Below, piece by piece: positions 13,659 through 64,000 of a DNA stretch of 64,000 bases. The position numbers were made by a program, and so were the translations under genes. The first letter of the stretch is position 1; the number at the start of each line of letters is the position of its first letter. The notes under the pieces are model-generated. The model was not told the origin of the DNA. It saw nothing but the letters and a program-made list of their open reading frames with translations, and made no database searches. Source of the stretch: Myxococcota bacterium. GTDB lineage: Bacteria; Myxococcota_A; Polyangia; JAAYKL01. The stretch spans positions 18,702 to 82,701 of the forward strand of contig JANQET010000041.1 of the NCBI GenBank assembly GCA_028278265.1, read 5' to 3'.

Positions 13659-13991
13659 TATGTTTCTCCATTCAAGCTGTCCCTGTTCAAGGGAGTTTAC
13701 TGTTGATGATTGGGTTTCGCGTAGAGCTGGAAATCTCTGACCAAAAAATTTTCCAAAATCAAAAGGCGGCGGATCGGCAGAACAGTGTTTGGCATCATTC
13801 ATTTTTTTGTTCATAGCAATGAGATTTGCGGTGTTGTTATTTATGTCATGCCTTCACACTGACCGAGGGCAGAACCATTGTGCGTTGTTATGCTTTTCAA
13901 ATTGCACAACGCATGAAGAAACTCGCGCGCATTTTGCGCTATATCGATGAGAGTATTCGCAGAAGAAAACGACAAACAAAGGAGTAAACAA

Positions 13992-14543
13992 ATGAAGATT
14001 ACGAAATTTATCTTGTTGCTGTCTCTCTTTTTCCTCGTCAGCAATGGTGCTTCAGCGGGGGTCGAGAACAAATACTTTAAACACGTTCAGTACTATGCCG
14101 GTGGAGATTCTTGGTTTACGACGACCAGTTTCTCATATCTCAGCACCTGCAACTATGAAAATATGCTGCCGGAGGTCGCGTCCAACTCAGAATGTTATGT
14201 TTACCGAACCAACGTAGGAGTGCCTCCGGTCGATTATCTGCCGCTAAAAGGGGTCAAAAAGATGTATGCCGGGATTTATAAATCCGGCAGTCCAACCATT
14301 CCATATGCGAACTGGTATTTCTGGGATGTCGTTGCCAAATATTGGGATCACACAGTGGACATAGAACGTTCCACGTATGATTCTCCTCATATGGTTTATT
14401 ACGGTTACGAGGATAACGAGCTCAACGATTACCATGGGGTAAATTATCGCACGCGTGACACACCAATGCTGGGAGTGGTCTATAAGGTGCAGGATTCCGG
14501 CCGTAAATATGGGCGGGTTTTTGTGAGCAATCCGTTGCGCTGA
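13992..14543 (+). CDS. Secreted hypothetical protein
   Basis: MKITKFILLLSLFFLVSNGASAG signal peptide. Tyr/Trp-rich. Lies in a lower-GC islet. Confidence 0.45.
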   Translation: MKITKFILLLSLFFLVSNGASAGVENKYFKHVQYYAGGDSWFTTTSFSYLSTCNYENMLPEVASNSECYVYRTNVGVPPVDYLPLKGVKKMYAGIYKSGSPTIPYANWYFWDVVAKYWDHTVDIERSTYDSPHMVYYGYEDNELNDYHGVNYRTRDTPMLGVVYKVQDSGRKYGRVFVSNPLR

Positions 14544-14659
14544 AAATCCGTGTCGAATTGACACACGTCTCTTTTGCGAATATCTGATTCGATTCTCGAA
14601 AATCCTAAACAAAATTGGTCAAGTTCTACTGAAACGTATAAAGCAAACGAAGGTGATAT

Positions 14660-15463
14660 ATGTTTGAAGCTAAGAAAAAAAATATTACCACAAAGAAATC
14701 TCGCGGGTTGGTTTTGGCCTGCTGCATATCGGTACTGGTATTCCTCGGAGCCATTATCTTCAGAGAGGCTGAATCAAAAAATGTAAGAGTAACGCATCAT
14801 AACACGTTACGCATCGGCAATAGCACCGCCAATCGGCCACACCGGAACACATATCTGAAAATGGACGCGCAAAAGATTGCGGCGCTCAGCAATTTTGTCA
14901 GGCAAGCCAGGCGGGATCGGACGTCGGGTGATCAAGATGCGACGTCAGCAGGACCTACCGAAGAAGAGCGAATCGCCGGTGAAATTCTCACCAATCAGAT
15001 CGAATCCCTCACCGATGATCAGCTAGAACAAATTAACAAAGAGAAGGAGATCATCATGAGAACTTACTGGCAGGATGCACCAGGTATACTGACCGAAATG
15101 CTCAATGGCCAGGAGAAGGACGATGATTGGACAAAGCAGGTCCGTGAAACTGGTGAAGAATTTCTGTTCAGCAGCGAGTATCGCGGCACTACACTGGTGA
15201 GTGCGGACTGCCGTGAAACTCTGTGTGAGGTTTTGCTTCACCATCAACATGCAGAAGACGCCGAGAGATTTCGATATAAGGGAGGCGCTGAACAAGGTCC
15301 ATGGTTTGGTGAACAATTCGGTAAAGCGTTTGACCGGGACGACACGTTCATTACGCGCCTTGTGTTTTCCAAGGACAGGAATATCGAGCCGTTCAGGAAG
15401 ATCGGCGATATTATACTGGAGCGATCGCGAACGCGAGTTTCCACAAACGAGGTATCACCATAG
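14660..15463 (+). CDS. Membrane-anchored hypothetical protein
   Basis: N-terminal TM helix (GLVLACCISVLVFLGAIIF) followed by a charged soluble domain. No recognisable motifs. Lower-GC region. Confidence 0.4.
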   Translation: MFEAKKKNITTKKSRGLVLACCISVLVFLGAIIFREAESKNVRVTHHNTLRIGNSTANRPHRNTYLKMDAQKIAALSNFVRQARRDRTSGDQDATSAGPTEEERIAGEILTNQIESLTDDQLEQINKEKEIIMRTYWQDAPGILTEMLNGQEKDDDWTKQVRETGEEFLFSSEYRGTTLVSADCRETLCEVLLHHQHAEDAERFRYKGGAEQGPWFGEQFGKAFDRDDTFITRLVFSKDRNIEPFRKIGDIILERSRTRVSTNEVSP

Positions 15464-15572
15464 TACGTTGGTGTAGCCTCGCACGATTTCACGCCAACCC
15501 CATATTCTACGTTCTACGTTCCGTCTTTTTTTGTCTTGAAGAGTAGTAGGCGAGGGTTATTTGTCTGCTATC

Positions 15573-17054
15573 CTACCATCGGCCGACATACATCGGATAG
15601 GTGTTGTTGCTTGTGTATTGCGTATATTCCACCGGCACAAACTGCGTAAAAATTGTTGCACCGGAAAGAGCAAGCGCTCCATCCCAAGGTTGCGCTCCAG
15701 CCTGCGTGTGTTGTGTATACCACGCCAAGATAATTGCTGAATGTCCGTTGTGTCCTTTTTGTATGTAGTCGCCGCTCTTGGGCGTATATTTTTGACTACA
15801 ATCATACTCTCCCTGGGATATCCATTCCCCAGTGCGGATCCATTTGTAGAAACCAGGTCCATCAGGACAAAAGGAATTGTCAACACCACCGAGGGTATAG
15901 CCGTCCCAACGATAGAGTCGATTATGTGCCTCGAAGATCAGTCCAAGCCCTTCCGGTCCCCCGTGGCCGGGGGGTGGGAATTCTTGGTCATGATCCCACC
16001 AATCATTTTCAGAACTCCACCAATAGTGATTGAAGTACCATGTAGCGGTCTCGTCGCAGCCGCCCTGGGTTGGGGGAATGCCGCCATACTTATTAAAATC
16101 TGTCCCGGACTTGCCGATATCAAAGCGGATGCCTCTTGTCGGATAATTGTTGATGTCTCTGTCGTGAAACTCGAACCAATCGATAAGATTCTCGAAATGA
16201 GTCATCATTTCGAACAGGTGCTGTGTTCGATAGTCCCGCATCCAAACGCTGCCCGAGGGTGCATCCAATCGCCGATCCGTTATCGATTTGATCGCAGGAT
16301 TCCAGAAGAAATCGGGAAAATTGTTGTATTGCTGGCGATTTGTGAAGTATGTGCAAACATCATCGTCATTGGATGGATCGTCATCCGTCGTGCTGGTGTA
16401 ACTGCTCATGGCCACATCGCTATAGTAAACTCGGGTCACCAGAGAGTCGATATCGAGAACAGTAGAACCCCCGTGATTTTTCAAATACATGCTATCCCAG
16501 TATGCCCTGTTTCCGAAAATCGGCAGCTTGTGTAGCTCCGTCAAATTTACGTCCGCCCATGACGCCCGACCACAATAATGGCGACGATTGCCGTTGATCG
16601 GTCTGAACGAGACTGGCACTTCGATGCAATCGCTTGACGTTTTACAGAAGGCGACTTCTCTGGTCCAACGAGTATGAGCTGGATTGGTATCCAGCACAAT
16701 TTCTACGACGAGGTCCAAAGCCTTGGCACCTTCAAAAAGGTCTCCTTTTTGTTCCCCGACCCGCTCCGCATCCCATCTCGACAATTGGTCCGCCATCATC
16801 TCCATTGCCTGATTGATATCTTCATCAGGTGCAACCTCGGTCTGGCTCTGGACATCGGCTAATTCTGGGTAGAGTGGTAAAGGGTTCGCATTTTCCGCGG
16901 TGGCGGGATGGGTCATTTCCTCCGTATCCATATATTGATCTTCGTTTTCGATATTGGGCCCTTCATCGATTTCACAAGCTAAGTTGAAGAACATCAATCC
17001 GACGATCAAAAACTTGAATTTGAACTTCACATTGGATAATTTTTTCATCATCAT
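15573..17054 (-). CDS. Secreted lipoprotein, hypothetical (acidic N-terminal region; Trp/Tyr-rich C-terminal domain)
   Basis: MMMKKLSNVKFKFKFLIVGLMFFNLACEID (signal plus lipobox LAC). 493 aa. No confidently recognised catalytic motif. Confidence 0.5.
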   Translation of the reverse strand: MMMKKLSNVKFKFKFLIVGLMFFNLACEIDEGPNIENEDQYMDTEEMTHPATAENANPLPLYPELADVQSQTEVAPDEDINQAMEMMADQLSRWDAERVGEQKGDLFEGAKALDLVVEIVLDTNPAHTRWTREVAFCKTSSDCIEVPVSFRPINGNRRHYCGRASWADVNLTELHKLPIFGNRAYWDSMYLKNHGGSTVLDIDSLVTRVYYSDVAMSSYTSTTDDDPSNDDDVCTYFTNRQQYNNFPDFFWNPAIKSITDRRLDAPSGSVWMRDYRTQHLFEMMTHFENLIDWFEFHDRDINNYPTRGIRFDIGKSGTDFNKYGGIPPTQGGCDETATWYFNHYWWSSENDWWDHDQEFPPPGHGGPEGLGLIFEAHNRLYRWDGYTLGGVDNSFCPDGPGFYKWIRTGEWISQGEYDCSQKYTPKSGDYIQKGHNGHSAIILAWYTQHTQAGAQPWDGALALSGATIFTQFVPVEYTQYTSNNTYPMYVGRW

Positions 17055-17595
17055 TCCTTCAGTGTTGGCACCTATTGTGCAGGTGGCTTTCGAGATTAGT
17101 TGAGGCCTCAGTTCTCTTAACTGATAAACACCGAAAATGCGGTTGGTACGAACTGATATCTTCGCTGATCTGATTTGATCAATCGGCTGTGAATCGAGTC
17201 GTCAATCGGCAAGAGGAGTAAGTCCATTGAATCCAGCTCACGGATACGCGAATGAATTCTCATTCTGTCGCCGAAGTTGTGTGCCCCTCCGAGTGGACCA
17301 TCTTCTCATCGACAATAATCGAAGACGACACATGGCCCGAGCTCGTGGTGGAACGATAAGCTGTCTGTCATGGGGCCGCCGCCACCCATAGTCGCCAAAA
17401 AGACAATGGTGTCGATCACTACCAATAGTCGGCAACTGCTTCGTTTTTTCTAATTTAGAAAAGATTCTTTTTTTCGCCCAAAACCCAGCCGAGTCCCGTT
17501 CTTTTACTGAGCCGAAAAGAACAGGCGTCTGTAGAGCGACAGATCCTGTCGATTGTTCTTTTCATATCTTGACCCTTAACCAGGAGGAAATTGAA

Positions 17596-23797: not shown

Positions 23798-24727
23798 TCA
23801 ATCGATCGCCGGACGGGGGAAGAGGTTGGCCTTCTCCACGATTTTGGGCACCTTTTTCTCCCACTCGATGGCCATGATGTGCACGCCGCTGAGCCCCTTC
23901 ATCTCTTTTAGGGCGTCGATCAATTCGCAGCAGATCTTGACCCCCTCGATCCCGCCCTTGCCCTTGGGGGCGTCGACCATCCGTTTGACAATCGCTTCGG
24001 GCATGATCACCCCGGGGACGTGCTCGGCCATGTACTTGGCCATCCGGCCGGACTTGAGCGGGATCACCCCGGCGAGAATGTGGCACCGTTCGGTGAGGCC
24101 CAGGTCCCGCGCCTTGCTCAGCCATTGTTCGAAAATCTCGAGATCGAAGACGCATTGGGTCTGGATAAAGTCGGCGCCGGCCTCCACTTTTTTCTTCAGC
24201 CGGTAGGGCCGAAACTCGAACGGCTCAGCAAACGGATTGGCGGCCGCGCCGATGAACATCTTCACCGGGCCGTCCAGTTTTTCGTCGGAGTCCAACAATT
24301 TGTTCTCGTCGCGCAACCGCCGCATCGCGCCCACCAATTGGATCGAGTCGATGTCGAAGACATTTTTGCTGTGGGCCTGGTTGCCGAACTGCTGGTGATC
24401 GCCGCTCAGGCACAACACGTTGGGGATGCCCAGGGCGGCCGCGCCGATGATGTCGCTCTGCATCGCGATGCGGTTGCGATCCCGGCAGACCATCTGCATC
24501 ACCGGCTCGAGGCCCTGTTGCTGGGCGACCACCGCGGTGGCGATGCTGGACATGCGCACCACGGCGGTCTGGTTGTCGGTGATGTTTACCGCGTCCACAT
24601 ACCCCCGCAGCAGGGCGGCCTTTTTTTTGACCGCTGCGACGTTGTTGCCCTTGGGCGGTCCCAGCTCACCGGTGACCACGAAGTGGCCCGCTTCGAGCAG
24701 TTTTTCCAAACGACTTGGGGTTTTCAT
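23798..24727 (-). CDS. metF: Methylenetetrahydrofolate reductase (MetF-like, 309 aa)
   Basis: TIM-barrel-sized protein with N-terminal FVVTGELGPPKG (FFPP-like strand). The immediately upstream MetV-like partner supports the MetFV assignment. Confidence 0.6.
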   Translation of the reverse strand: MKTPSRLEKLLEAGHFVVTGELGPPKGNNVAAVKKKAALLRGYVDAVNITDNQTAVVRMSSIATAVVAQQQGLEPVMQMVCRDRNRIAMQSDIIGAAALGIPNVLCLSGDHQQFGNQAHSKNVFDIDSIQLVGAMRRLRDENKLLDSDEKLDGPVKMFIGAAANPFAEPFEFRPYRLKKKVEAGADFIQTQCVFDLEIFEQWLSKARDLGLTERCHILAGVIPLKSGRMAKYMAEHVPGVIMPEAIVKRMVDAPKGKGGIEGVKICCELIDALKEMKGLSGVHIMAIEWEKKVPKIVEKANLFPRPAID

Positions 24728-24733
24728 CGGCGG

Positions 24734-25414
24734 TCAATCCTTTTTGGTGTAGCGATCCCGGTACGCCTCGTGTACTAGCTGCCCCTGTTTCTGATTTTGC
24801 CAAGCTGTGGGTTGACGGATCCGCTCAATGTTCTCCACCCGCTGCTGAGTTTTCAGGCGGTTGAAAATGTCGACCCAGGCGCAGGGGGTCTCGGCGTCCA
24901 GTTCGCAGCGACCCTCCCGCTGGGTGCCGCCGCACGGTCCGTTGAAGATCGATTTGGCGCAGCGGGTCACCGGGCAGATGCAGCCGGTGTAGGCCAGCTG
25001 GCAGTCGCCGCAGGAGCGGCATTTCTCTTCGTACCAGCCCACCTCCCGGTTGACCCCCAGAAACTGGGTGTTCACCCCGGGGTAGACCGGTTTTTCCGGA
25101 AACTGTTCGGCGATCAGTTGGGCCCCGGCGCCACAGCCCACGCAGAGAAATGCCTCGAACTCTGCGGCGAGGATGTCCAGCTCCTGAATAAAATCGGGAT
25201 CGCAACCGCGCTCGACCACGTATCCCTCGAAGGTCTTGTTGAGTCCCTTTTCTTTGAACAGCTGCTCGAGCTCCAGGCACAGCTGGTCCACCTCGGGCTG
25301 ACCGCCGGCCAGGCAGATCGAGGTGCACCCGCCGCAGCCGACGATCAGCGTCTTGCCGTGGGGTTCGAGCCCTTCGGCGATTTCGGGCAGTGGTTTGATT
25401 TGGGCGACAATCAC
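24734..25414 (-). CDS. metV: MetV-like protein (methylene-THF reductase C-terminal-domain family; Cys-rich, probable Zn/Fe-S)
   Basis: 226 aa with the FNGPCGG motif and multiple CxxC pairs (GCGGCTSIC, CVGCGAG, CRSCGDC, CICPVTRC). The gene sits directly upstream of metF. Confidence 0.55.
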   Translation of the reverse strand: MIVAQIKPLPEIAEGLEPHGKTLIVGCGGCTSICLAGGQPEVDQLCLELEQLFKEKGLNKTFEGYVVERGCDPDFIQELDILAAEFEAFLCVGCGAGAQLIAEQFPEKPVYPGVNTQFLGVNREVGWYEEKCRSCGDCQLAYTGCICPVTRCAKSIFNGPCGGTQREGRCELDAETPCAWVDIFNRLKTQQRVENIERIRQPTAWQNQKQGQLVHEAYRDRYTKKD

Positions 25415-25423
25415 AGTCCCACC

Positions 25424-25807
25424 TCACTTATCGTCAAATCGTTGATAGACCCCTTGGGAGCGACAGATGGCCCGGGCCAGGGCGATCATGCTGGAGACAT
25501 CGATCCCGAACGGGCAGTAACAGCGGCGACACAGGGCGCACTTGTCGAACACCAGTGATTTCATCTGTTCGAGCTCGTGCCGGTTCACCTTTCCGCGTTT
25601 TTTGAAGAGACGGCCCAGGGAGTGCACCGCCTTGTAGGCCGGGGTGGCCTTGGGGTCTCGATGGTTGCGGTAGTAGAAGCAGCTCTCGGCGCACAGCCCG
25701 CACTTGGCGCAGATCGACAGAAACAGTTTGAGCTGTTTCTTTTGCGCCAACAGCTGTTTGATCCGGTGTTGGTCGATCGCCGGGGCCGGTCGGTCGCTCA
25801 CCATGTT
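25424..25807 (-). CDS. Small ferredoxin-like protein with two [4Fe-4S] motifs (HdrC/DsrK N-terminal-like)
   Basis: MVSDRPAPAIDQ... followed by CAKCGLCAESC and CALCRRCYCP cluster-binding motifs. The start overlaps the stop of the upstream membrane protein by about 10 nt. Confidence 0.55.
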   Translation of the reverse strand, partial: NMVSDRPAPAIDQHRIKQLLAQKKQLKLFLSICAKCGLCAESCFYYRNHRDPKATPAYKAVHSLGRLFKKRGKVNRHELEQMKSLVFDKCALCRRCYCPFGIDVSSMIALARAICRSQGVYQRFDDK

Positions 25808-26487
25808 CGGCTCCCGGCGGCCAGGCTGTGTTCGCTGTTGATGCCCAGTCGGGTGAAAAAGAAAAAGATCATGTGGCCGAGCTTGGTCACCCCCAGGGCG
25901 ATGAGCATCAATTGCCCGCTGAGCATATGGGCGATGATGATCTGGGGATAGGGGCCGATTTGCCGAAAGGCCAGCCATCCGGTGACAAACGGAGCGACGG
26001 TGATCCCCAACAGGAGAAAATCGGTGACACCGCTGAGCGCCCGCACCGGGGCGCTGAACAAGCGGCGGCCCAAGAAAACCGCTGCGCAGGAGATGACCGC
26101 GACGGTCAGAGCGTCGGTGAGCGGCTCGACAAAACTGGGCAGGCTGAAGCGCCATGCGTCGTAGAGCAACACCTGGTGGCCCCGGGCGAACAGGGGAGTG
26201 ATGAAGAGCAGGGTGTGAAAGAGAACCGTCAGCCCGATCAACAGGGGATGTCGTCCCAGCACCGAGCGGCGCAGGGCGGTACGCCATCCGGTCATCCGCT
26301 GGCCCAACGACGGGGTCGCAGGGGCCCGCTTCTTCGGGGGCGCGGCGCGCAACAGCCGGCGTTGTTTCCGTGCAGACAGCCGAAAGAGCCGGTGCAGCTG
26401 AATCGCCGAGCCGGCCAGGAAAATGGCCAGTGCGAGCCAGGTCATCGGACCGCGGACAAATTCATACAGTTCGGACGGGTTGACCAT
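25798..26487 (-). CDS. Integral membrane cytochrome b-like protein (NarI/HdrE/DsrM family)
   Basis: 229 aa with 5-6 predicted TM helices and conserved His in helices (HPLLIGLTVLFHTLLF, IIAHMLSG, LGHMIFF), typical of quinone-interacting di-heme b subunits. First gene of the metFV-linked operon. Confidence 0.55.
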   Translation of the reverse strand: MVNPSELYEFVRGPMTWLALAIFLAGSAIQLHRLFRLSARKQRRLLRAAPPKKRAPATPSLGQRMTGWRTALRRSVLGRHPLLIGLTVLFHTLLFITPLFARGHQVLLYDAWRFSLPSFVEPLTDALTVAVISCAAVFLGRRLFSAPVRALSGVTDFLLLGITVAPFVTGWLAFRQIGPYPQIIIAHMLSGQLMLIALGVTKLGHMIFFFFTRLGINSEHSLAAGSRTW

Positions 26488-26498
26488 GATACGTACTT

Positions 26499-27545
26499 TT
26501 AGTCGGTTTGATCGATCTTGTCGATAATTCCCAACGCGGCAATTGTCTCGAGGATCTGATCGTGCAGCGGTCCGTTAGTGGCGATGATACCCCGGTTTTG
26601 CGCCAGGGTGCGACCGTGAGTGAATGCCAGCGGTCGCCCCGTGATATCGGTGACCCGCCCGCCCGCCTCGAGCACGATCAGCGCGCCGGCGGCGTGATCC
26701 CAGATTTTTTCCCGATAGGCCCGGTCCCGGGGGAGGCGCAGGTAAGCTTCTGCGTCACCCCGGGCGACCACGCCATACTTGGTCTGGCTGTCCAGTCGCA
26801 CCGGATCGGCCCCGATGGCGAGCCGCTTGGCCAGTCGCGCCGTGTCATCGTGAGAGGAGTGGGCCTTTTCCACGGATTCACAAAAGCGGATGCGGGTTGC
26901 CTGACGCTCCTCACTGACCCGGATGCAGGTCGCCTGGTCGGTCTCTTCGGCGCTGAGCTCGTAGCAGCCCACACCGCGGATGGCCGCGAACACGGTACCA
27001 TCGCCGATTCGATCGGGGGCACGGTGGGCCGCGTTCAGGTTGGGGCAGCCCAGGACCCCTACCTGGAGCTCCCCTTCGACGACCAGGGCCAGGGCGATGG
27101 CGTACTGTCCGCCGCGCAGAAAACCCTTGGTGCCGTCGATCGGATCAAGGGTCCAGAACCGATCCGTGTACTGTTTCTGGCCGCCCTGATCGATCAGGTG
27201 ACAAATCGCCGATGCGTCCAAGCTGGGATCGATGGGTTGTATCCGGTCCACCAGGTGGCCGAGCAGTTCGGCATTCTGGGGCTGCCTTAGGGCAGCGGCG
27301 TCCTCTTCGGCGATGATCGGATCGGCTGGAAAGTGCTCTTTTAGGATCTGGCAGACCAATGCCTGGCTGCCGAAATCGGCCAGGGTCACCGGGCTGCGGT
27401 CTTTCTTCTCCAAGGTATCTTTGGCGATCGCCGCTTGAACGGCACGGCAGAGTCGGGCGGCGCGGCGAACGGCAAAGATGGCGGCGCGGCATTCATCGCG
27501 ATAGGGAGTGGTCTCGGCCCAGTCCAGTGTCAAATTGATCATCAT
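26499..27545 (-). CDS. 3'(2'),5'-bisphosphate nucleotidase / inositol-monophosphatase family (CysQ/HAL2-like)
   Basis: The WTLDPIDGTKGF motif (IMPase signature DPIDGT), together with the VLGCPNL block and a size of ~348 aa, fits the HAL2/SAL1-like PAP phosphatases. Confidence 0.65.
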   Translation of the reverse strand: MMINLTLDWAETTPYRDECRAAIFAVRRAARLCRAVQAAIAKDTLEKKDRSPVTLADFGSQALVCQILKEHFPADPIIAEEDAAALRQPQNAELLGHLVDRIQPIDPSLDASAICHLIDQGGQKQYTDRFWTLDPIDGTKGFLRGGQYAIALALVVEGELQVGVLGCPNLNAAHRAPDRIGDGTVFAAIRGVGCYELSAEETDQATCIRVSEERQATRIRFCESVEKAHSSHDDTARLAKRLAIGADPVRLDSQTKYGVVARGDAEAYLRLPRDRAYREKIWDHAAGALIVLEAGGRVTDITGRPLAFTHGRTLAQNRGIIATNGPLHDQILETIAALGIIDKIDQTD

Positions 27546-31145: not shown

Positions 31146-31161
31146 TGGCACTGCCTTTGCT
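31146..31161 (+). promoter_or_regulatory. Sigma-54 (RpoN) promoter, -24/-12 elements TGGCAC-N5-TTGCT
   Basis: Perfect match to the TGGCAC-N5-TTGCW consensus. AGGAGG ribosome-binding site at 31174-31179 and ATG at 31186 of the NifX-like gene follow. Confidence 0.7.
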
Positions 31162-31185: not shown

Positions 31186-31602
31186 ATGCTCGTCGCTGTT
31201 CCCCTGTTTGGCCAAGAGATCGCCCCCCGATTCGGTTTTGCCGATCTGTTTTTGATCGCCGAAATCACCGGCAGAGGGGTTGGTTCGACGGTACGTGAGG
31301 TAACCCTGACGCCAGGGTGGTCGACCAAGTTGGAGGCCTTGCGGACCATGGGTGTAGAGGTGTTGTTGTGCGGTGGGTTCAATCGCCAGTTCGTGCCCCA
31401 AGCGACCGCATTGGGCCTCACCGTCTTCGCCGGATTGACCGGCGGTGCCAGGGAGGCTGTTGAGGCGTTTGCCCGTCGGGAAACGATGCCGACCTTCTAC
31501 TGCAACCATCCGGGATCCCCAAAGGGGACCGGGCGGAACGGGAAATGTGGCTCGATCAGCGGGCCGCAAAACAGGAGAGGTATGAAAGGAGCCAGAAAAT
31601 GA
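31186..31602 (+). CDS. Dinitrogenase FeMo-cofactor-binding family protein (NifX/NifB C-terminal/NafY-like small protein)
   Basis: MLVAVPLFGQEIAPRFGFADLFLIAEI...VLLCGGFN. The layout is typical of the PF02579-type small proteins. Preceded by the sigma-54 promoter. Confidence 0.55.
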   Translation: MLVAVPLFGQEIAPRFGFADLFLIAEITGRGVGSTVREVTLTPGWSTKLEALRTMGVEVLLCGGFNRQFVPQATALGLTVFAGLTGGAREAVEAFARRETMPTFYCNHPGSPKGTGRNGKCGSISGPQNRRGMKGARK

Positions 31603-32009
31603 ATATTTGTATTCCAGTAGATGAGGACAAAGGAGAGCTGAGTCCGGTCTGTGCCCATTTCGGATCAGCGCCGATCTTCATGATGGTCGATGTGGACACG
31701 ATGGACACCACTGCCGTACCCAATGCCAACGCCCACCACGCTCACGGCATGTGCCAGCCGCTGGCCTCCCTGTACGGTCATCAAGTGGACGCAATTGTCG
31801 TCAGCCAGATCGGGATGGGCGCCCTGACCCGGTTGGAGGCGGCCCGGATTGCGGTGTATCTCTGTGAGTTTCCCACGGTCAAAGAAACGGTCGACGCGTT
31901 CAAGGCGGGAACCCTCGGCCGGGCCAATCGTGCCAATGCGTGTGGTCATCATGGAGGCGGGAAGGGTCGAGGAGCAGGGTGTGGCCATCAGCGGCGCGGT
32001 GGTGCGTGA
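31599..32009 (+). CDS. Second NifX/NafY-like FeMo-cofactor-binding family protein
   Basis: MNICIPVDEDKGELSPVCAHFGSAPIFMMVDVDT...AIVVSQIGMGA. Tandem paralog that overlaps the previous gene. Confidence 0.5.
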   Translation: MNICIPVDEDKGELSPVCAHFGSAPIFMMVDVDTMDTTAVPNANAHHAHGMCQPLASLYGHQVDAIVVSQIGMGALTRLEAARIAVYLCEFPTVKETVDAFKAGTLGRANRANACGHHGGGKGRGAGCGHQRRGGA

Positions 32010-35234: not shown

Positions 35235-36641
35235 TCAGCGATTCGCTGATTCGATGCGGTGTTTTTTCATCTTGCGCCAGAGGGTGGTGCGGCTGATTTG
35301 CAGCGCCTGGGCGGTTTTTCCCAGATGACCCCGATTCGCCTTGAGGGCGTTGCGAATCACTTCCACCTCGGCCAATTGCAACTGTGACGGTGGCTGCTCC
35401 TCTCTGGTACCCTCCGGACATTCGTCGAGCGGGATCACGTCCTCGGGGAGATGGTGGAGATCGATTGTGCCGTTGTGACACAGCACGAAGCCGTATTCGA
35501 TGATGTTCTCCAGCTCTCGGACGTTGCCGGGAAAATCGTGGCGCATCAATGCCTCCATCACCGCGGGCGTGACCCCGGCGATCCGTTTGCCCCGTTTGGC
35601 ATTGAAGCGTTGGACAAAGTGATCGACGAGCAGGGGGATGTCCCCCCGGCGTTTACAGAGCGGCGGAATGTTGAGGCGAATCACGGCCAGGCGGAAGTAG
35701 AGATCATCGCGAAATTGATCCTCGCTGACCATCGCAGCCAACTTGCGATTGGTCGCCGCAACGACCCGCACATTGGCCTTGAGCGTCTTGGTCCCCCCGA
35801 GCGGTTCGTACTCCCGCTCCTGCAGGACGCGCAGCAGCTTGACCTGGGTCGGCGGCGGCAGCTCGGCCACCTCGTCGAAAAAGATCGTGCCCCGTTCGGC
35901 CAGGGCAATGCGGCCTGGCTTGGAGCGCTTGGCATCGGTAAAGGCCCCTTGCACGTAGCCGAACAACTCGGACTCGAACAGATTGGCCGGCAGGGTGCCG
36001 CAGTTGACCACCACGTAGGGTTCGTTGCTGCGGGTGCTCAGATTGTGCACCGCCCGAGCCAGCAGCTCCTTGCCCGAGCCGCTCGGTCCTTCAATCAGCA
36101 CGGTGGATTCACTTTCGGCGATGTCGGGCAGGATGGCGAAGATCTTCTGGAACGCCTCGCTCTTGCCGACAATATCCTCGAAGGTGTACCGATTGGTGAT
36201 CTCCCGGCGTAGCTGTTCAATCGCCGACAGATCGCGAAACGTCTCCACCGCGCCCAATAGATTTCCCTCGTCGTCGTGCATCGCCGCAGTGCTGACGCTG
36301 ATCGGAATAGAGCGGCCCTGGCGGTCGAGAATTCTGGCGGGCAGGTCGATCTGCTCACAACCGGTCTTGAGCGTCTGGCGCAGGGCGCACCCCCGCTCGC
36401 AGATATTGGCGTGAAACACGTCGGAGCAGCGCCGGCCGATGGCCTCGGCGGCAGACATTCCGGTGATACGCTCTGCCGCGCGATTGAATGAGGTGATGCG
36501 CCACTGTCGATCCACGGTGAACACCCCGTCGGCGATGGAGTTCAAGATGGTTTCGGTAAATCTCTTTTCTTTGTCCGGACTGAGCAATATCGGTTGCTGG
36601 GGTTCTGCTGGGGTCACTGATCCTCCTGGTGAAACGTTCAT
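35235..36641 (-). CDS. Sigma-54-dependent Fis-family transcriptional activator with N-terminal Cys-containing PAS domain
   Basis: PAS domain (FTVDRQWRITSFNRAAERITGMSAAEAIGRRCSDVFHANICERGCALRQTL). AAA+ sigma-54 motifs (GPSGSGKELLARAVH, GAFTDA, GTIFFDEV). C-terminal HTH (LGKTAQALQISRTTLWRKMKKH). Confidence 0.85.
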   Translation of the reverse strand: MNVSPGGSVTPAEPQQPILLSPDKEKRFTETILNSIADGVFTVDRQWRITSFNRAAERITGMSAAEAIGRRCSDVFHANICERGCALRQTLKTGCEQIDLPARILDRQGRSIPISVSTAAMHDDEGNLLGAVETFRDLSAIEQLRREITNRYTFEDIVGKSEAFQKIFAILPDIAESESTVLIEGPSGSGKELLARAVHNLSTRSNEPYVVVNCGTLPANLFESELFGYVQGAFTDAKRSKPGRIALAERGTIFFDEVAELPPPTQVKLLRVLQEREYEPLGGTKTLKANVRVVAATNRKLAAMVSEDQFRDDLYFRLAVIRLNIPPLCKRRGDIPLLVDHFVQRFNAKRGKRIAGVTPAVMEALMRHDFPGNVRELENIIEYGFVLCHNGTIDLHHLPEDVIPLDECPEGTREEQPPSQLQLAEVEVIRNALKANRGHLGKTAQALQISRTTLWRKMKKHRIESANR

Positions 36642-36817
36642 CTCCTATTGTGCAAAAAAGCAACATTCGTACCGCACGACGGCGTCGGGATGATTGTCCC
36701 GGGAACGCTGGTGTTCATCGTCATCAAACAACGACTCACCAATGCGCTTGTGTTTCAATGGTGAGCCGCTTCGGTGAAACATGAAACAATTTGAAACAGC
36801 GGGTGAATCAGTCGGGA

Positions 36818-37231
36818 TCAACCGAGGATTTTGGCAATCGTCTTCAACAGCTCTTGTTGGTCAATTGGCTTGGGGATGAATCCGTCAGGCGGTGGGGCCG
36901 ACTTGCGGGAGTTCAGAAATCGTTTGAACGGCTCGGGATCTTTGCCGTAGTAAGTCACCGCAGTCACCACGACCACCGGGATATCCGATAGGCCGGGTTG
37001 GGCTTTCAAATCCCGGTAGAAGCGAATGCCCGATTGCTCCGGCATCGTGATATCGAGACAGACCAAGTCGGGTTTGCTTCGCTCCACCGCCTCCATCGCC
37101 TCCCGTCCATTGGATGCGGTCTCGGTTTCGTAACCGTTGTCCTCCAGCAGGGTCTTGATGTAGGTCACCACGTGGGGTTCGTCGTCGACCACCAATATCG
37201 TCTTTTTCGTTTGGGGTGTTGTGTCGGTCAT
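36818..37231 (-). CDS. Single-domain response regulator (CheY-like receiver)
   Basis: MTDTTPQTKKTILVVDDEPHVV...LVCLDITMPEQSG...PVVVVTA...KP receiver motifs. Confidence 0.75.
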   Translation of the reverse strand: MTDTTPQTKKTILVVDDEPHVVTYIKTLLEDNGYETETASNGREAMEAVERSKPDLVCLDITMPEQSGIRFYRDLKAQPGLSDIPVVVVTAVTYYGKDPEPFKRFLNSRKSAPPPDGFIPKPIDQQELLKTIAKILG

Positions 37232-37312
37232 CCGGTCTCTCCTTCGACAGGGATCATTGTTCCCCCGGGTTAGGGACAGTCGTGTCAATCGACCACTGTC
37301 CCGCAACCGGGA

Positions 37313-37840
37313 TCAGTCCTTCACCCTGTTTTTCAGTGCGGCAAGCGCTTGTTGCAGCGCCTCGGGACTGGCGCTTCGAATCTCCTTTTGCAAGGACTCC
37401 TTGAGCGTGAGCTTCTGTTCTTCCGCCGGGGATTCCTCAATCCCCAACGCCCGCTGGACACTGCGCACATAGGACATCGGCTGGACCGGCTTTTCCAAGT
37501 AAGTGCCCGGACCGGACATCACCCGGTTTTGCAGCAGATCGTCGAGATCCCGTTTTCCCAGCTCGTCCTTGGCATGGGCGGTGACAATGAGCACGGGAAT
37601 GCGCGACAACACCTTGTCCTTCTTGAGCTCGTACAGCAGTTGGTGGCCGGTCTTCTTGGGCATCAGCAGATCCAATGAGATGAAATCCGGCGGGTCGGAT
37701 CGGATCATCTCCAGCGCCTGTTGGCCATCGGGCGCCGTAACGACGTTGAACCCGGCATCTTCGAGAATGGCCCGCAGGTAGTGCCGCACATCCGGCTCGT
37801 CATCGACCACGAGAATTGTTTTGTCCTGTGCCCGTTCCAC
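37313..37840 (-). CDS. Single-domain response regulator (receiver) with short C-terminal extension
   Basis: KTILVVDDEPDVRHYL...FISLDLLMPKKTG...PVLIVTAHA...KP. Confidence 0.75.
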   Translation of the reverse strand: MERAQDKTILVVDDEPDVRHYLRAILEDAGFNVVTAPDGQQALEMIRSDPPDFISLDLLMPKKTGHQLLYELKKDKVLSRIPVLIVTAHAKDELGKRDLDDLLQNRVMSGPGTYLEKPVQPMSYVRSVQRALGIEESPAEEQKLTLKESLQKEIRSASPEALQQALAALKNRVKD

Positions 37841-37842
37841 GT

Positions 37843-38991
37843 CTATTCCTCCTCGTCCTCACCGCCTGTCTTCGAAACAGGGGGAAGGGTTTGCGAGCGG
37901 TGCGAGTCGTTCAGTCGGTTTAATTTGTCTCTGGCGAACTCCAAACGAAACACCGATCCCCGGCCGCTGCTAGAGTCAAACGACACCTTGCCCCCGTGAG
38001 CCAGGACTATTTTTCGCGTTGTCAACAACCCCAATCCGGTGCCCCGATCCGAGCCCTTGGTGGAGAAGAAGTTGGTAAACACCTTCTTGGCGATTTCCGA
38101 GTCGATGCCGATGCCGTCGTCTTTGACTGCAAAGATCACTGTTCCCTCGCGCTCATAGACCGACACCTCGACCCGACCGTTCTCCTTGACGCTCATCTCG
38201 CAGGCATCCAGGGCGTTGGAGACCAGGTTGGCCAGGCAGGTGTGTATCCCCTCCTCGTCCAACGGCGCGGCAGCGATGGTTTCGTCGAGAGTGGTGACGA
38301 GCTCGATACCGGCGAGGGCCGCCCCGTCGGCGAACAGCTCGACCACCTTGGCGGCGATGCGGTTGGGATCAGTGGGGCAGACTTCGATCGGTCGACCCTT
38401 GGCGAAATCGAGAAACTCTTTGACGAAGGAGGAGATGCGCGCGATGTTCTCCTCGAGCATGTCCCACCCCTCGAGCATGCGATCCATGTCCCCTTTTTGA
38501 ATGCCCGTGCGGGCCATGTACATCCCGCCGTCCAGGCCGGTGATCACGTTCTTGATCCCGTGGGCCAACCCGGCCACCGTTTGTCCGACCACGGCCAAGC
38601 GCTCGGCTTGTCGCTTCTCCTGCTCCAAGGTCTTGGTCTCGGTGATATCGGTGGACATCTCGATAATGAAGGGGATTTCCCCATCCGGATGAACCAACGG
38701 CACCATGTGCACCAGGTAGTGGATTGCGCTGCCGTCCTGGGAGACCCCTTGCTCCTCCCGGATACGGAGCTGGCCATCGGCAAAGGTGTTCGCTGCGGCG
38801 CACTCCTGACAGCGGGCGGTGCGGTCCTTGTAAACCGCGTAGCACGGTCGGTTGCGCCACTGGCCATAGGTCTGGGCAAAGGTCTGATTCGCTTCGATGA
38901 TGCGGTACTCCCGGTTGATCACGCTGATACTGACCGGAACCTGATCCCACAACTCGGTGCGGACCCAGTGCTTGACATCCGGGGTAATCAC
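37843..38991 (-). CDS. Cytoplasmic PAS-domain sensor histidine kinase
   Basis: PAS domain with Cys triad (RPCYAVYKDRTARCQECAA). HisKA H-box (RLAVVGQTVAGLAHGIKNV). HATPase motifs (NLVSNALDA, DDGIGI, GTGLGL). The start overlaps the upstream gene (ATGA). Confidence 0.8.
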   Translation of the reverse strand: MITPDVKHWVRTELWDQVPVSISVINREYRIIEANQTFAQTYGQWRNRPCYAVYKDRTARCQECAAANTFADGQLRIREEQGVSQDGSAIHYLVHMVPLVHPDGEIPFIIEMSTDITETKTLEQEKRQAERLAVVGQTVAGLAHGIKNVITGLDGGMYMARTGIQKGDMDRMLEGWDMLEENIARISSFVKEFLDFAKGRPIEVCPTDPNRIAAKVVELFADGAALAGIELVTTLDETIAAAPLDEEGIHTCLANLVSNALDACEMSVKENGRVEVSVYEREGTVIFAVKDDGIGIDSEIAKKVFTNFFSTKGSDRGTGLGLLTTRKIVLAHGGKVSFDSSSGRGSVFRLEFARDKLNRLNDSHRSQTLPPVSKTGGEDEEE

Positions 38992-40883
38992 TTGGTGTCA
39001 CCCGGTTTTGCCGGAGCGGCGTAGGGGCCGATATGTCGCCAGGACGCCACTGCTTGCTTCTGATGACACAAGGCGCAGTCGCCGGTGCTGGGTTCAGTGG
39101 CGTCGGCCGCGGATTCCCGTTGATGGCAGCTGATGCATAGTCCATGCATCGCATCCAAGTAGCCGACGGCCAGGCCGGTCGACCCACCGGTAGGCGGAGT
39201 GATGGACGACCCCGTCACGATCATCCCCTGGTGGCAATCGGCACACGGCGTGGCGGTCTCACGGGTTTTCACCTGGTCCGCATTTCGATGACAGCGACTG
39301 CAGCCCTGTCGGCCCTCGAGGTGGTTGATGTGACTGGAGTGATCAAAAATATCGGTGGCCAAGTACATGTCACGATGGCAGTCGCTGCAAGCGCTTTGGG
39401 AGTCAAAGGGCAACCGTTGGTGGTGGCACATCTCGCACGCCTCTTTGTCGCCGAGATCTTCGACGTGCTGATCGTGGGCGAACAGAACCCCTCTCCCGTC
39501 CCGGTTGCCGTCCACCACCATCAGGCGGGCCGCGGAATGGTCGATCAGCTTGCCCTCGATCGTCCGGGGGGCCGAAACCGGCGTGGCCGCCAATTGGGCG
39601 CCGAACAGGTCACCGTCGGCGAGCAGAAAAATTGCCCCCACGGCACCGAGCATCGCGGCCAGGGAATACCGGCGCGGTGCGGACATGCTGTGGGGCAGCA
39701 GCAGACGAAGGCTCCCGGCCAGCCGCGGAGCGACGGCGCCGGTCGGTTCGGGGGAGTGTGGCTCCTCATCTTCTGGATAGACCCGTAGCCGCTCCACCAA
39801 CCAGATGAAGACCATCAGCGCGCAGGCGACCACCCCCAGGCTGACCGCGATTTCGATCCAACTGGGAAAGTAGGAGACCCCATCGGGTCGACCAAAGGCC
39901 ACGATTGCCACGTCGAAGCGATACCCGATGACGCCGAAGACGGTCATCAGCGCGGTGACCAGCAGACCGGCCGAGCTGCTGCGCACCCGGGAGAACATCA
40001 GCAACAGTCCGGGCACCAGGGCACCGAGGGACAGCTCGAACCAAAAGAGCGCAGCCATCCCCGAACCATCGAACGCCTGGGCCAGCCCACCGCGCGTCGC
40101 CAAGTCGCCGAGACGCAGTGCCGCGTAGCCGAGGAGGACGGATCCGGCAGCCCGGCCCAGACCGGACAGCTGTTTGAGCTTGAGCGGGTGACCGAAGTAC
40201 CAGGCCGAGAAGAACGATTCCAGGGTAACCATCATCAATCCCAGGCCGATCGCCGAGATATAGAACAGGATCCAGATGATCGGGCTGTACCACAGGGGGT
40301 GCACCCGATGTGGGGCGATCAAAAACAGGGAGCCCAATGACGATTGGTGCAGGGTCGACAGCACGATGCCGGCGATGACCAGCACAATGGTCAGCTTTTT
40401 GATCAATCGATGGACCGTGCGGAACAGGGGGCGATTGAACAGCCGGTGTTCGAGAATCGCCGGACTGAACTCGAACAGCAGCACCGTGAGGTAGATCATC
40501 ACGCACATCGCCACTTCGAAGAGCACCGAGCGCGGTTGGGGGAAGACGATGGGATGCCAGATGTGCCAGGGCAGACCCAGGTCGTACAACAGACCGACCG
40601 CCACTGCGGCGTAGCCCAACAGGGCGGTGAGGATTGCCGGTCGGGCAAATCCTTTGTACTGCTCAAGGCGAAAGATGTAGACCGCCGCGGCGAGGACGAA
40701 TCCTCCGGCCGCCAGCGCCACCCCGGCCATCACATCAAAGGCGATCCAAAATCCCCAGGGAGTGGCGTCGTTTAACCCGGTGGTGGCCCCCAAGCCGCCG
40801 ACAAAACGGGCGATGGTCACCACGCCGAAGATACCGATCAGAGCCCACAGAACCGTTTTGAGAGTGCGCTGGCGAGTGGTCAT
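38988..40883 (-). CDS. NrfD/PsrC-family polytopic membrane subunit fused to a C-terminal hexaheme cytochrome c domain
   Basis: The N-terminal ~400 aa carry about 10 TM helices in NrfD/PsrC/DsrP style. The C-terminal domain has six CxxCH motifs (CEMCHH, CSDCHR, CSRCHR, CADCHQ, CISCHQ, CALCHQ). Confidence 0.75.
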   Translation of the reverse strand: MTTRQRTLKTVLWALIGIFGVVTIARFVGGLGATTGLNDATPWGFWIAFDVMAGVALAAGGFVLAAAVYIFRLEQYKGFARPAILTALLGYAAVAVGLLYDLGLPWHIWHPIVFPQPRSVLFEVAMCVMIYLTVLLFEFSPAILEHRLFNRPLFRTVHRLIKKLTIVLVIAGIVLSTLHQSSLGSLFLIAPHRVHPLWYSPIIWILFYISAIGLGLMMVTLESFFSAWYFGHPLKLKQLSGLGRAAGSVLLGYAALRLGDLATRGGLAQAFDGSGMAALFWFELSLGALVPGLLLMFSRVRSSSAGLLVTALMTVFGVIGYRFDVAIVAFGRPDGVSYFPSWIEIAVSLGVVACALMVFIWLVERLRVYPEDEEPHSPEPTGAVAPRLAGSLRLLLPHSMSAPRRYSLAAMLGAVGAIFLLADGDLFGAQLAATPVSAPRTIEGKLIDHSAARLMVVDGNRDGRGVLFAHDQHVEDLGDKEACEMCHHQRLPFDSQSACSDCHRDMYLATDIFDHSSHINHLEGRQGCSRCHRNADQVKTRETATPCADCHQGMIVTGSSITPPTGGSTGLAVGYLDAMHGLCISCHQRESAADATEPSTGDCALCHQKQAVASWRHIGPYAAPAKPGDTK

Positions 40884-41665
40884 GATTTTTTCTCTTTTTT
40901 GTCAGTAGCGGTCTCAACTGTCCCGGCCAGTTTCTGGCGACGGCCGGTAATCCACCACACTCCGGCCATTAGGCCACCCATTCCAAGAATGATCGGGGGC
41001 ACTTTGGACAACGCGGCCCAGGTGAGGTCGGGGAGCGGGGTGTCGCCGAGCTCGGGGTTCAGACTCAAAAAATCCAACGGGATGTCCGAGACGTAGAGCA
41101 CCGAGGTGCCCCCCACTTGGGTTTCGCCGTACACTTTGTCGATGTATTTTTTGGGATTGCGTTTTAGACGGTGATGGGCCTCTTCGCGCAATTGATCCCG
41201 CGGACCGAAAACGGTTGCCCCTTGGTCGCAAGCGTCGACACAGGCCGGTTGCCCGCCCGCCTCAATGCGCGAATAACACATCGTGCATTTGCGCACGTAG
41301 GGAATCGGCTTTTCCCAGTCGTAACGAGGAATGCCGTAGGGGCAGGCGACCATGCAGTAGCGGCAGCCCATGCATTTGTCCCCATCGTAGATCACCGGTC
41401 CCTGAGGAGTTTTCGTGAGGGCGCCGACGATGCAGGCCGAGACACAGGCCGGCTCGAGGCAGTGCCGGCACTGTTGACGGACGAAGCGGCCCCCCGATTT
41501 GGCCAGCACGGTGGTAAAGCGGGTCGACGAGAGATCGTCGATGCGGCGTTTCCAACGGCGGGGTAGATCCTTGCTCAGTTGATTCTCTTTTTTGCAGGCA
41601 TCGACACAGGCATTGCAGCCGATGCAGTGGGTTGTGTCGGTGAGGATAGCCTGACGGATGGTCAT
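40880..41665 (-). CDS. Four-cluster [4Fe-4S] ferredoxin-type subunit with C-terminal TM anchor (HybA/PsrB/DsrO/HmcB-like)
   Basis: CIGCNACVDAC, CRHCLEPACVSAC, CMGCRYCMVACP and CTMCYSRIEAGGQPACVDAC motifs. C-terminal hydrophobic helix (PPIILGMGGLMAGVWWI). Start MTIRQAIL overlaps the DsrM-like stop (ATGA). Confidence 0.75.
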   Translation of the reverse strand: MTIRQAILTDTTHCIGCNACVDACKKENQLSKDLPRRWKRRIDDLSSTRFTTVLAKSGGRFVRQQCRHCLEPACVSACIVGALTKTPQGPVIYDGDKCMGCRYCMVACPYGIPRYDWEKPIPYVRKCTMCYSRIEAGGQPACVDACDQGATVFGPRDQLREEAHHRLKRNPKKYIDKVYGETQVGGTSVLYVSDIPLDFLSLNPELGDTPLPDLTWAALSKVPPIILGMGGLMAGVWWITGRRQKLAGTVETATDKKEKKS

Positions 41666-42363
41666 ACGGGTTCCCCTTCTTTGTTCAACGCGATTGCCAC
41701 CTTGCTGCCCGCGTCCGACGGCCAATGCCAACCGATTTCGGAGACATATTGGGCACCGGGCAGGAGCACGGCGTGACTCAATTTGGAGAGCGGCATCAGT
41801 ACCAGTAAGAGGTTGGCGCTCATCACATGAACCAACAGGGTGGCATCATATGAAAACGGATTGACCCCTGGGTGCATCACGCCGAAGCCGGTGACGAACG
41901 GCACGGCGATCAGCAGGGGCAGGGCGTAGTCTTGAAAGCGGGACAGGTTGCGTGTCGCCCGTGCGGACAGCCGTTGAATCACCAGCGCCACCGCGGTGAC
42001 GATCGCCACCAGGGTCAGTACATCTGCCAGGTGGTTGGGAATCGCCGGCCAGGAGAGCCCCGTGCCACGGGCCCAGAGCACGATATGGCCCGCTAGAAAA
42101 ATCGGCACCACCAGGATGGCGATGTGGAACAGAATCGAGGTCGCGCTGAACAACCACTGACTCTTGAGCTTGCGCAGGGGAAAGAGCCAGTTGAGGGTGG
42201 CGACGAAGATTTGAAGCGTGGGGATGGTCCGGTCGCCGGCGCGCCGCAGGTGACGCCTGATTTCGAAAAACGTGACCAGCAGGTGGCGCAGGTAGCCGAG
42301 CACCATGAAACTGAAGGCGCCGATGAAAATCGGTCCTCTCGCCCATTCCAGCCAGGTTGCCAT
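41662..42363 (-). CDS. Membrane cytochrome b subunit (NarI/DsrM/HmcE-like)
   Basis: 233 aa with about 5 TM helices and conserved His residues (LFHIAILVV, LLVHVMSANLL). Sits directly after the HdrD/DsrK-like gene. Confidence 0.7.
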   Translation of the reverse strand: MATWLEWARGPIFIGAFSFMVLGYLRHLLVTFFEIRRHLRRAGDRTIPTLQIFVATLNWLFPLRKLKSQWLFSATSILFHIAILVVPIFLAGHIVLWARGTGLSWPAIPNHLADVLTLVAIVTAVALVIQRLSARATRNLSRFQDYALPLLIAVPFVTGFGVMHPGVNPFSYDATLLVHVMSANLLLVLMPLSKLSHAVLLPGAQYVSEIGWHWPSDAGSKVAIALNKEGEPV

Positions 42364-63891: not shown

Positions 63892-64000
63892 AATTGCCTC
63901 CAATAATCTGCGGGCGCTGTTAAAAAGGATTGACAATATCAGTCGCGTCTTTCAAATGATGCCTCGAAACTACTTTCCGAGGCCTGCCTTGTGTTAAATC

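Follow-up and report, generated by a model that had tools for sequence, protein, structure and literature searches.

A putative membrane-anchored MetFV-type methylene-tetrahydrofolate reductase encoded with a cytochrome b and a small ferredoxin in a Myxococcota bacterium

One question asked for decades in the bioenergetics of acetogens and the Wood-Ljungdahl pathway is whether the reduction of methylene-tetrahydrofolate (methylene-THF; E0' about -200 mV) is membrane-coupled. A stretch of 64,000 nucleotides from a Myxococcota bacterium (contig JANQET010000041.1, positions 18,702 to 82,701; here referred to as the window) raises this question again, as its minus strand carries, at 23798..26487, four closely spaced open reading frames (ORFs) for a cytochrome b, a small ferredoxin, MetV and MetF. 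A first-pass annotation of the window had proposed that MetFV is wired here to a membrane cytochrome b via a two-cluster ferredoxin, and not to soluble HdrABC-MvhD, and this proposal fits both the conserved synteny of the genes and the existence of natural cytochrome b::ferredoxin fusion proteins. Judging from the sequences, we consider it fairly probable that the operon encodes a membrane-anchored MetFV-type methylene-THF reductase that moves electrons across the membrane. Such a module would be an explicit, genetically encoded membrane link, running from haem b via 2x[4Fe-4S] and MetV to MetF, which is often found inside acs operons and is present in cultured bacteria. The module is also relevant to the fate of the -200 mV electrons of methyl-THF in syntrophs and in sulfate reducers that oxidise their substrates completely.

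The four proteins of the module

The identities of MetF and MetV, as first annotated, are confirmed by hidden Markov model matches. MetF, the catalytic flavoprotein subunit of methylene-THF reductase (309 amino acids; 23798..24727, minus strand), matches PF02219 over residues 6-300 of 309 (E=2.3e-37, 129 bits against a cutoff of 24), and its sequence matches in the PDB are methylene-THF reductases (MTHFRs) only. The catalytic residues on which the first-pass annotation had made this assignment depend are all present, with Glu21, Asp110 and Gln191 aligning with Glu28, Asp120 and Gln183 of Escherichia coli MetF. Among the NCBIfam models, the top match is the MTHFR half of the bifunctional homocysteine methyltransferase/MTHFR (5.5e-66). 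MetV, the iron-sulfur subunit (226 amino acids; 24734..25414, minus strand), starts with a GTG codon preceded by the Shine-Dalgarno-like sequence GAGGTGGG, matches PF12225 (DUF5981; E=3.4e-33, 114 bits against a cutoff of 23) and contains the motif FNGPCGG; 13 of its cysteines are kept in 62-63 of 63 module-linked MetV sequences. The MetVF enzyme purified from C. ljungdahlii contains two [4Fe-4S] clusters per MetV as well as flavin mononucleotide, and does not use NAD(P)H (PMC8760232).

The small ferredoxin (126 amino acids; 25424..25804, minus strand) is a 2x[4Fe-4S] protein with Fer4_17/Fer4_8 matches. Its eight cysteines, Cys32, 35, 38, 42, 89, 92, 95 and 97, form two four-Cys motifs and are invariant in 38 sequences, one of them a true TmcB. 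With the NCBIfam models, it matches only the N-terminal ~110 residues of HmcF (2.2e-28), TmcB (1.1e-25) and DsrK (5.7e-17): residues 12-120 correspond to positions 39-152 of the 457-position HmcF model, and in the 430-position TmcB model the match is confined to positions 24-135. No CCG (non-cubane cluster) domain is matched in the window ferredoxin by either Pfam or NCBIfam, and its homologues, which are 114-154 amino acids long, form a family of their own. The protein had originally been described as HdrC-like, an identity that we reject in view of the matches to the HdrD-type proteins TmcB, HmcF and DsrK; from these alignments, it is best described as the HdrD-type ferredoxin domain of TmcB/HmcF/DsrK that lost its CCG domain. 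A longer ORF of 287 amino acids at 25424..26287 was also considered and rejected as a real gene, being an upstream extension of the ferredoxin frame over the cytochrome b gene, with a G+C content at third codon positions (GC3) of 0.60 and a length well outside that of the homologues.

The membrane subunit (229 amino acids; 25798..26487, minus strand) is a NarI/TmcC/HmcE-type di-haem cytochrome b, which is matched by the NCBIfam models TmcC and HmcE. It has five transmembrane helices, with two histidines in helix II and two in helix V, and all four (His91, His104, His187 and His205) are invariant across 29 homologues. Precomputed PF02665 matches exist for some homologues of the protein. PDB searches with the single sequences of MetV, the ferredoxin and the cytochrome b gave no match, and only the family profile of the cytochrome b reached NarI of E. 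coli (1q16_C, E=1.3e-4); in this alignment, His187 and His205 coincide with His187 and His205 of NarI, the haem ligands of helix V. Loop 37-80, predicted to be cytoplasmic, contains 13 Lys/Arg and zero Asp/Glu residues and, together with the hydropathy profile, therefore points to the topology of NarI, with the N-terminus outside and the C-terminus inside. His104 and His187 would ligate a haem on the periplasmic side and His91 and His205 a haem on the cytoplasmic side. Natural proteins of 365 amino acids, in which the cytochrome b carries the same ferredoxin domain fused to its C-terminus and which end right after this domain, are consistent with a cytoplasmic C-terminus and with direct contact of the two proteins.

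Operon structure and recurrence of the gene set

All four minus-strand ORFs are present as first annotated, save for the start of the ferredoxin gene: the reported overlap with the end of the cytochrome b gene is real, but the true ATG lies at 25804 instead of 25807. The sequence ATGGTGA is shared between the cytochrome b stop and the ferredoxin start, the gap between the ferredoxin and MetV genes is 9 nt and that between the MetV and MetF genes 6 nt, and the GC3 of the operon genes is 0.78-0.85. Upstream on the same strand, at 26499..27545, lies a gene for a HAL2/CysQ-type 3'(2'),5'-bisphosphate nucleotidase (PAP phosphatase; TIGR01330 5.8e-101, 338 bits against a cutoff of 267, with a PF00459 match), the stop codon of which is 11 nt from the cytochrome b start. 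Its ATG is preceded by a GGAGG ribosome-binding site and the gene itself by an AT-rich divergent intergenic region. Based on this layout, the PAP phosphatase gene is probably the first gene of the operon and co-transcribed with the others; the gene spacing and its position 11 nt upstream therefore suggest a five-gene operon, 27545..23798. A promoter scan found neither a sigma-70-like site nor a sigma-54 consensus upstream of the operon, and a terminator scan found terminator-like sites at chance level only; it is therefore from the gene spacing alone that we infer co-transcription. The linkage of the PAP phosphatase and cytochrome b genes is seen only in the window and in its Logan copy (L001). 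On its other side, the operon is flanked by a convergent gene for a fatty-acid-CoA ligase, whose best named matches are from Desulfobacterota (~60% identity), and none of hdrA/hdrBC/mvhD or rnfC2 flanks the window operon beside metVF.

The same gene set is found in many other bacteria. A profile scan of one genome per GTDB species, seeded with MetV-linked sequences, yielded 80 loci, and together with loci from exact-protein look-ups 84 non-redundant loci (cited by L numbers where needed) were classified by tblastn. In 62 of these, one of them the window, MetV is found with the cytochrome b-ferredoxin pair and a CCG domain is absent. Another 17 loci have a ferredoxin that runs on into CCG domains, as in true TmcB/HmcF-like proteins, and that is usually followed by a tetrahaem cytochrome c3 gene (c3); the remaining five are cut at contig ends or unclassified. 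MetV and a CCG domain never occur together at one cytochrome b-ferredoxin copy (0 of 84 loci). True TmcCBA loci were recovered by the same search, and a neighbour-joining tree of the cytochrome b places the CCG-linked proteins in a single clade and the MetV-linked proteins in several. Among the loci, the order of the genes for the cytochrome b (cytb), the ferredoxin (fer) and their partners varies (cytb-fer-c3-metV-metF, metF-cytb-fer-c3-metV, c3-metV-cytb-fer-metF or metV-cytb::fer-c3) and their content is constant. MetF adjoins the module in 38 of the 62 MetV-linked loci, that is, the window and 37 others, in which it is 57-70% identical to the window MetF. The 365-amino-acid fusions are flanked by metV and a c3 gene (L003 4265..9534; L006/L007 7249..9534). 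The MetV-linked set spans at least five phyla. The loci as a whole come from Desulfobacterales, Syntrophales, other Thermodesulfobacteriota, Spirochaetota, Planctomycetota, Myxococcota and Thermodesulfovibrionia, and from one Bacteroidales metagenome-assembled genome; cultured species among the loci are Desulfosarcina variabilis (L041, complete genome) and Desulfothermus okinawensis (L081).

A separate observation concerns many Syntrophales-type loci, in which metV is followed by another, divergent MetF-like gene with 33-39% identity to the window MetF (e.g. L004 10547..11419, with equivalent positions in L016, L021, L023, L029, L035, L036 and L049). In the same loci, a MetF of 60-64% identity is also present before the cytochrome b. 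The second MetF-like protein of L004 has Gly at the position of the catalytic Gln.

This comparative picture bears on the simplest alternative, namely that the four genes are neighbours by accident, or that the ferredoxin is a decayed TmcB, in which case the cytochrome b and ferredoxin would make up a generic or degenerate Fe-S oxidoreductase without any relation to MetFV. The modest TmcC/HmcE and Fer4 scores, and the presence of a second, complete Hmc-like cluster in the window, would be in line with such a view. However, the recurrence of the same set in 62 loci across several phyla, in shuffled order and with constant content, goes far beyond what chance would produce. Furthermore, the 114-154-amino-acid ferredoxins with their eight invariant cysteines constitute a family in their own right, the natural fusions stop right after the ferredoxin domain, and the GC3 values and overlapping junctions indicate expressed, coupled genes. 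We consider an accidental association very improbable, as it is already contradicted by the comparative sequence data.

Electron path, partner and physiological role

In the model that we favour, that of a membrane-anchored MetFV reductase, the four proteins would form one complex of Tmc/HdrDE/EtfD-like architecture, with MetV(F) in the usual place of the CCG catalytic domain. Electrons would travel between methyl-/methylene-THF, the MetF flavin, the MetV clusters, the 2x[4Fe-4S] ferredoxin, the proximal haem b, the distal haem b and a partner on the periplasmic side, and the two haems of the cytochrome b, one per membrane face, would bridge the bilayer. Since neither haem site has been lost, charge would be expected to cross the membrane, which should make the reaction electrogenic. 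In the reductive direction, periplasmic oxidation of H2 or formate combined with cytoplasmic reduction of methylene-THF would make up an energy-conserving redox loop that builds proton-motive force. In the oxidative direction, as may apply to complete oxidisers and syntrophs, the electrons of methyl-THF would be pushed outward at the cost of membrane potential, in a reverse redox loop. The E0' values are -414 mV for H2, -432 mV for formate and -200 mV for methylene-THF (PMC6895022, PMC9430772).

Several observations weigh against this model or against parts of it. The cytochrome b stays under the curated NCBIfam cutoffs (TmcC 1.3e-48, 165 bits against a cutoff of 240; HmcE 7.9e-38) and the window protein has no Pfam match at E<=0.1, PF02665 included; Foldseek against the PDB gave no significant match either. 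No ferredoxin::MetV fusion is present among the ten longer top matches from a search of 1.8 billion proteins, which carry Fer4 only and, in two cases, also CCG. The ratio of 62 MetV-linked to 17 CCG-linked loci is biased by the MetV-linked seeding of the scan and is therefore no estimate of frequency. Within the 64-kb window there are no other C1-pathway genes (acs, cooS, folD or fhs), no cytochrome c gene lies in the operon or within 12 kb of it, and the PAP phosphatase as operon-mate points to sulfur assimilation or methionine synthesis. Finally, the menaquinone/menaquinol potential is about -74 mV, and menaquinol acting via a NarI-like loop cannot drive methylene-THF reduction, which would be doubly unfavourable; with menaquinone, only the oxidation of methyl-THF is downhill. 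Therefore, the direction of electron flow and the partner in the source organism are the weakest part of the model.

With regard to the partner, 46 of the 62 MetV-linked loci have a gene for a multihaem cytochrome c, either tetrahaem c3 or a 16-17-haem protein, within the module or next to it. The c3 form is TmcA-like, with ~135 amino acids, a signal peptide and four CXXCH motifs. The HmcA-like form, which is found in one clade, has 513-656 amino acids and 16-17 CXXCH motifs, takes the place of c3 and is encoded directly after metF (L011 11097..12899; L012 6095..7933; L022 10953..12620; L028 11177..12937; L042 9701..11671) or, in L051, after metV (7125..8666). The family is therefore best described as Tmc/Hmc-like transmembrane conduits in which MetV(F) replaces the CCG catalytic domain, and in most relatives the co-encoded periplasmic cytochrome would be the electron partner. 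The window copy is a minority, divergent variant without a cytochrome c gene. The most likely partner of this copy would be the (methyl)menaquinone pool or else a cytochrome whose gene lies at another site, and the label 'quinone-interacting', which the first-pass annotation had attached to the cytochrome b, is a plausible interpretation for this copy.

The second of these partners would make the module of the source organism, like that of most relatives, a quinone-independent conduit of the Tmc/Hmc type, whose cytochrome b exchanges electrons with a periplasmic multihaem cytochrome encoded elsewhere. In addition to the 46 loci with a multihaem cytochrome, this is suggested by a motif in the periplasmic loop after His104, SWG.SLPS..E...D.LT, which is shared by true TmcC and by module copies with and without a linked cytochrome c. 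It is also suggested by the separate Hmc-like membrane redox cluster in the window, which is located 13 kb from the operon at 38988..43824 (minus strand), includes the sole multihaem ORF in the 64 kb and so indicates that a periplasmic cytochrome network exists. Its genes all lie on the minus strand, and their products all have NCBIfam scores under the equivalog cutoffs: 42364..43824 codes for a CCG protein of the DsrK/HmcF kind, 41767..42348 for another cytochrome b resembling TmcC/HmcE, 40880..41731 for an HmcB-like Fe-S protein, and 38988..40883 for an HmcC-like membrane protein whose C-terminus carries a fused domain with 6 CXXCH motifs. The next genes on the same strand (35235..38991) code for regulators, namely a histidine kinase, two receiver proteins and a sigma-54 activator. 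Conversely, the missing cytochrome c gene in and around the operon, and ~ten other loci that have enough flank and likewise no such gene, suggest a working cytochrome-c-free version, and both EtfD, the nearest solved fold, and NarI bind quinones at their haems. Taken together, we regard a quinone-independent conduit as unlikely for the window copy.

As for the physiological role, a Wood-Ljungdahl-type C1 function had been proposed in the first-pass annotation, and for the family this link holds. AcsB/AcsC genes are found in the flanking sequence covered for 13 of the 62 MetV-linked loci. The nearest relative of the cytochrome b (P0002, 48% identity) is encoded in a co-directional cluster of folD, acsD-like, cooS-like carbon monoxide dehydrogenase, acsB, acsC, acsE (Pterin_bind), DUF3786, cooC, cytb, fer, c3, metV and metF genes. 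The clusters of L091 and L004 resemble that of P0002, and Wood-Ljungdahl genes adjoin the module in L089 as well as in L091. From this gene context, the module sits in the place of the pathway's methylene-THF reductase in organisms with clusters of the P0002, L091 and L004 type. In the source organism, in contrast, a Wood-Ljungdahl role is hypothetical, since the 64-kb window has no other C1 gene and the operon has a PAP phosphatase gene as neighbour.

The same hardware could instead have an anabolic role in the source organism, supplying methyl-THF for methionine synthesis within sulfur-amino-acid metabolism. In yeast, the orthologue of the HAL2/CysQ-type enzyme that heads the window operon, HAL2/MET22, belongs to the methionine pathway. 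The L003 module (metV, cytb::fer, c3) comes immediately after metY-metX-metW, with no metF in the flanking sequence covered for L003. The window PAP phosphatase and this linkage thus make the anabolic role a serious rival as far as physiology is concerned; the lack of acs, folD and fhs-type genes in the window and the bifunctional homocysteine methyltransferase/MTHFR as top NCBIfam match of MetF point the same way. On the other hand, linkage to met genes is seen in one of the 62 loci compared with 13 for acs genes, the nearest relatives of the cytochrome b lie within complete acs clusters, and the CysQ linkage is unique to the source contig. We therefore see the anabolic role as a real possibility, albeit the less probable one, and it leaves the biochemistry proposed for the membrane-anchored reductase unchanged.

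Some further features of the window are of interest in their own right. A PARP-like protein (62140..63936, minus strand) combines a Lys-rich, histone H1/HC2-like N-terminus with WGR, PARP regulatory and PARP catalytic domains, and a protein of 1196 amino acids (44331..47921, minus strand) combines a BlaR1-type sensor/peptidase region with a class-C beta-lactamase/penicillin-binding-like domain. Proteins with DUF4411 (PIN-like) and IrrE/M78 peptidase domains are encoded side by side at 53735..55374 (minus strand) with a GC3 of 0.45-0.50, compared with ~0.75 in neighbouring genes, and look like an acquired toxin-antitoxin or defence-type pair. The region 13900..17100 has a G+C content of ~0.48, compared with 0.55-0.62 elsewhere, and contains three ORFs (198, 267 and 493 amino acids) without a Pfam match. 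A perfect sigma-54 promoter consensus, TGGCAC-N5-TTGC, is present at 31146..31161 (plus strand), ~400 nt upstream of a gene with a NifB/NifX-type Nitro_FeMo-Co domain (31545..32009), and the window encodes at least three sigma-54 activators (243..3017, 35235..36641 and 50803..52224).

Comparison with known systems

The cytochrome b shares with NarI of NarGHI its five helices, the N-out/C-in topology and the placement of two histidines in helix II and two in helix V. It differs from NarI in its cytoplasmic partner, in overall sequence (~12-15% identity) and in helix II, where the histidines of NarI are His56 and His66 and those of the module cytochrome b are spaced by 13 residues.

The Tmc and Hmc complexes of Desulfovibrio-type sulfate reducers are similar to the module in several respects: their membrane subunits are of the same TmcC/HmcE type, the ferredoxin corresponds to the N-terminal two-cluster domain of TmcB/HmcF, and most relatives of the module also encode a tetrahaem c3 resembling TmcA or a 16-haem cytochrome resembling HmcA. 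In contrast to Tmc and Hmc, the module has no TmcB/HmcF CCG catalytic domain but MetV, usually with MetF, and the window copy lacks TmcA as well. The genome paper on Desulfobacterium autotrophicum describes two TmcBCA clusters and a MetF cluster, which are not connected with each other (PMC2702500). The arrangement goes unmentioned in surveys of MetF gene contexts, which cover archaea of the ANME groups, marine Chloroflexi and bifurcating enzymes, and a full-text literature search found no published description of a MetFV-cytochrome b-ferredoxin module, although an earlier mention in passing is possible; the module family is thus apparently widespread and undescribed.

Known MTHFRs are grouped into four types, MetF alone (type I), MetVF (type II, C. 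ljungdahlii), RnfC2-MetVF (type III, A. woodii) and MetVF-HdrCBA-MvhD (type IV, M. thermoacetica and S. ovata), none of which is membrane-integral, and MetVF has been hypothesized to dock onto Rnf or Ech (PMC8760232). Membranes of S. ovata catalyse H2-dependent methylene-THF reduction; none of the subunits contains a transmembrane helix, and the published scheme labels the connection to the membrane as unidentified (PMC9430772). In Thermacetogenium phaeum, a quinone-analogue-dependent MTHFR activity is partly membrane-bound and the gene cluster contains no membrane subunit (PMC6895022). The module resembles these acetogen reductases in its core of MetF and MetV, encoded by adjacent genes and often within acs clusters, whereas it has neither RnfC2 nor HdrABC-MvhD as partner but a di-haem cytochrome b integral to the membrane, together with a small ferredoxin. 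We tentatively suggest, at somewhat less than even odds, that the gene set represents a fifth, membrane-integral class of methylene-THF reductase, in which the methylene-THF/methyl-THF step is itself chemiosmotic, and that the window copy is a derived, cytochrome-c-free form connected directly to the quinone pool. If so, a reductive run from periplasmic H2, formate or cytochrome c would conserve energy, and an oxidative run would be a reverse loop driven by proton-motive force.

Mechanistically, the closest precedents by analogy are EtfD and EMO. EtfD has five transmembrane helices, a haem b with menaquinone nearby, and two cubane clusters leading to two CCG-domain clusters that accept electrons from the electron-transfer flavoprotein (ETF) (PMC13083937). 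The related EMO (ETF:(methyl)menaquinone oxidoreductase) of Syntrophus aciditrophicus has a NarI-like domain with proximal and distal haems, and has been proposed to reduce methylmenaquinone at the periplasmic face by way of a reverse redox loop that proton-motive force powers (preprint 10.64898/2026.08.18.745454). A NarI-like domain and a two-cluster ferredoxin domain are common to EtfD/EMO, HdrDE and the module, in which they are encoded by separate genes in the window and fused in some relatives. EtfD of M. smegmatis has one haem, whereas both His pairs are kept in the module cytochrome b. In EtfD/EMO and HdrDE, CCG/non-cubane cluster domains are present in addition, and the electrons come from ETF or serve to reduce a heterodisulfide, whereas the module lacks these domains and has MetVF as its catalytic partner.

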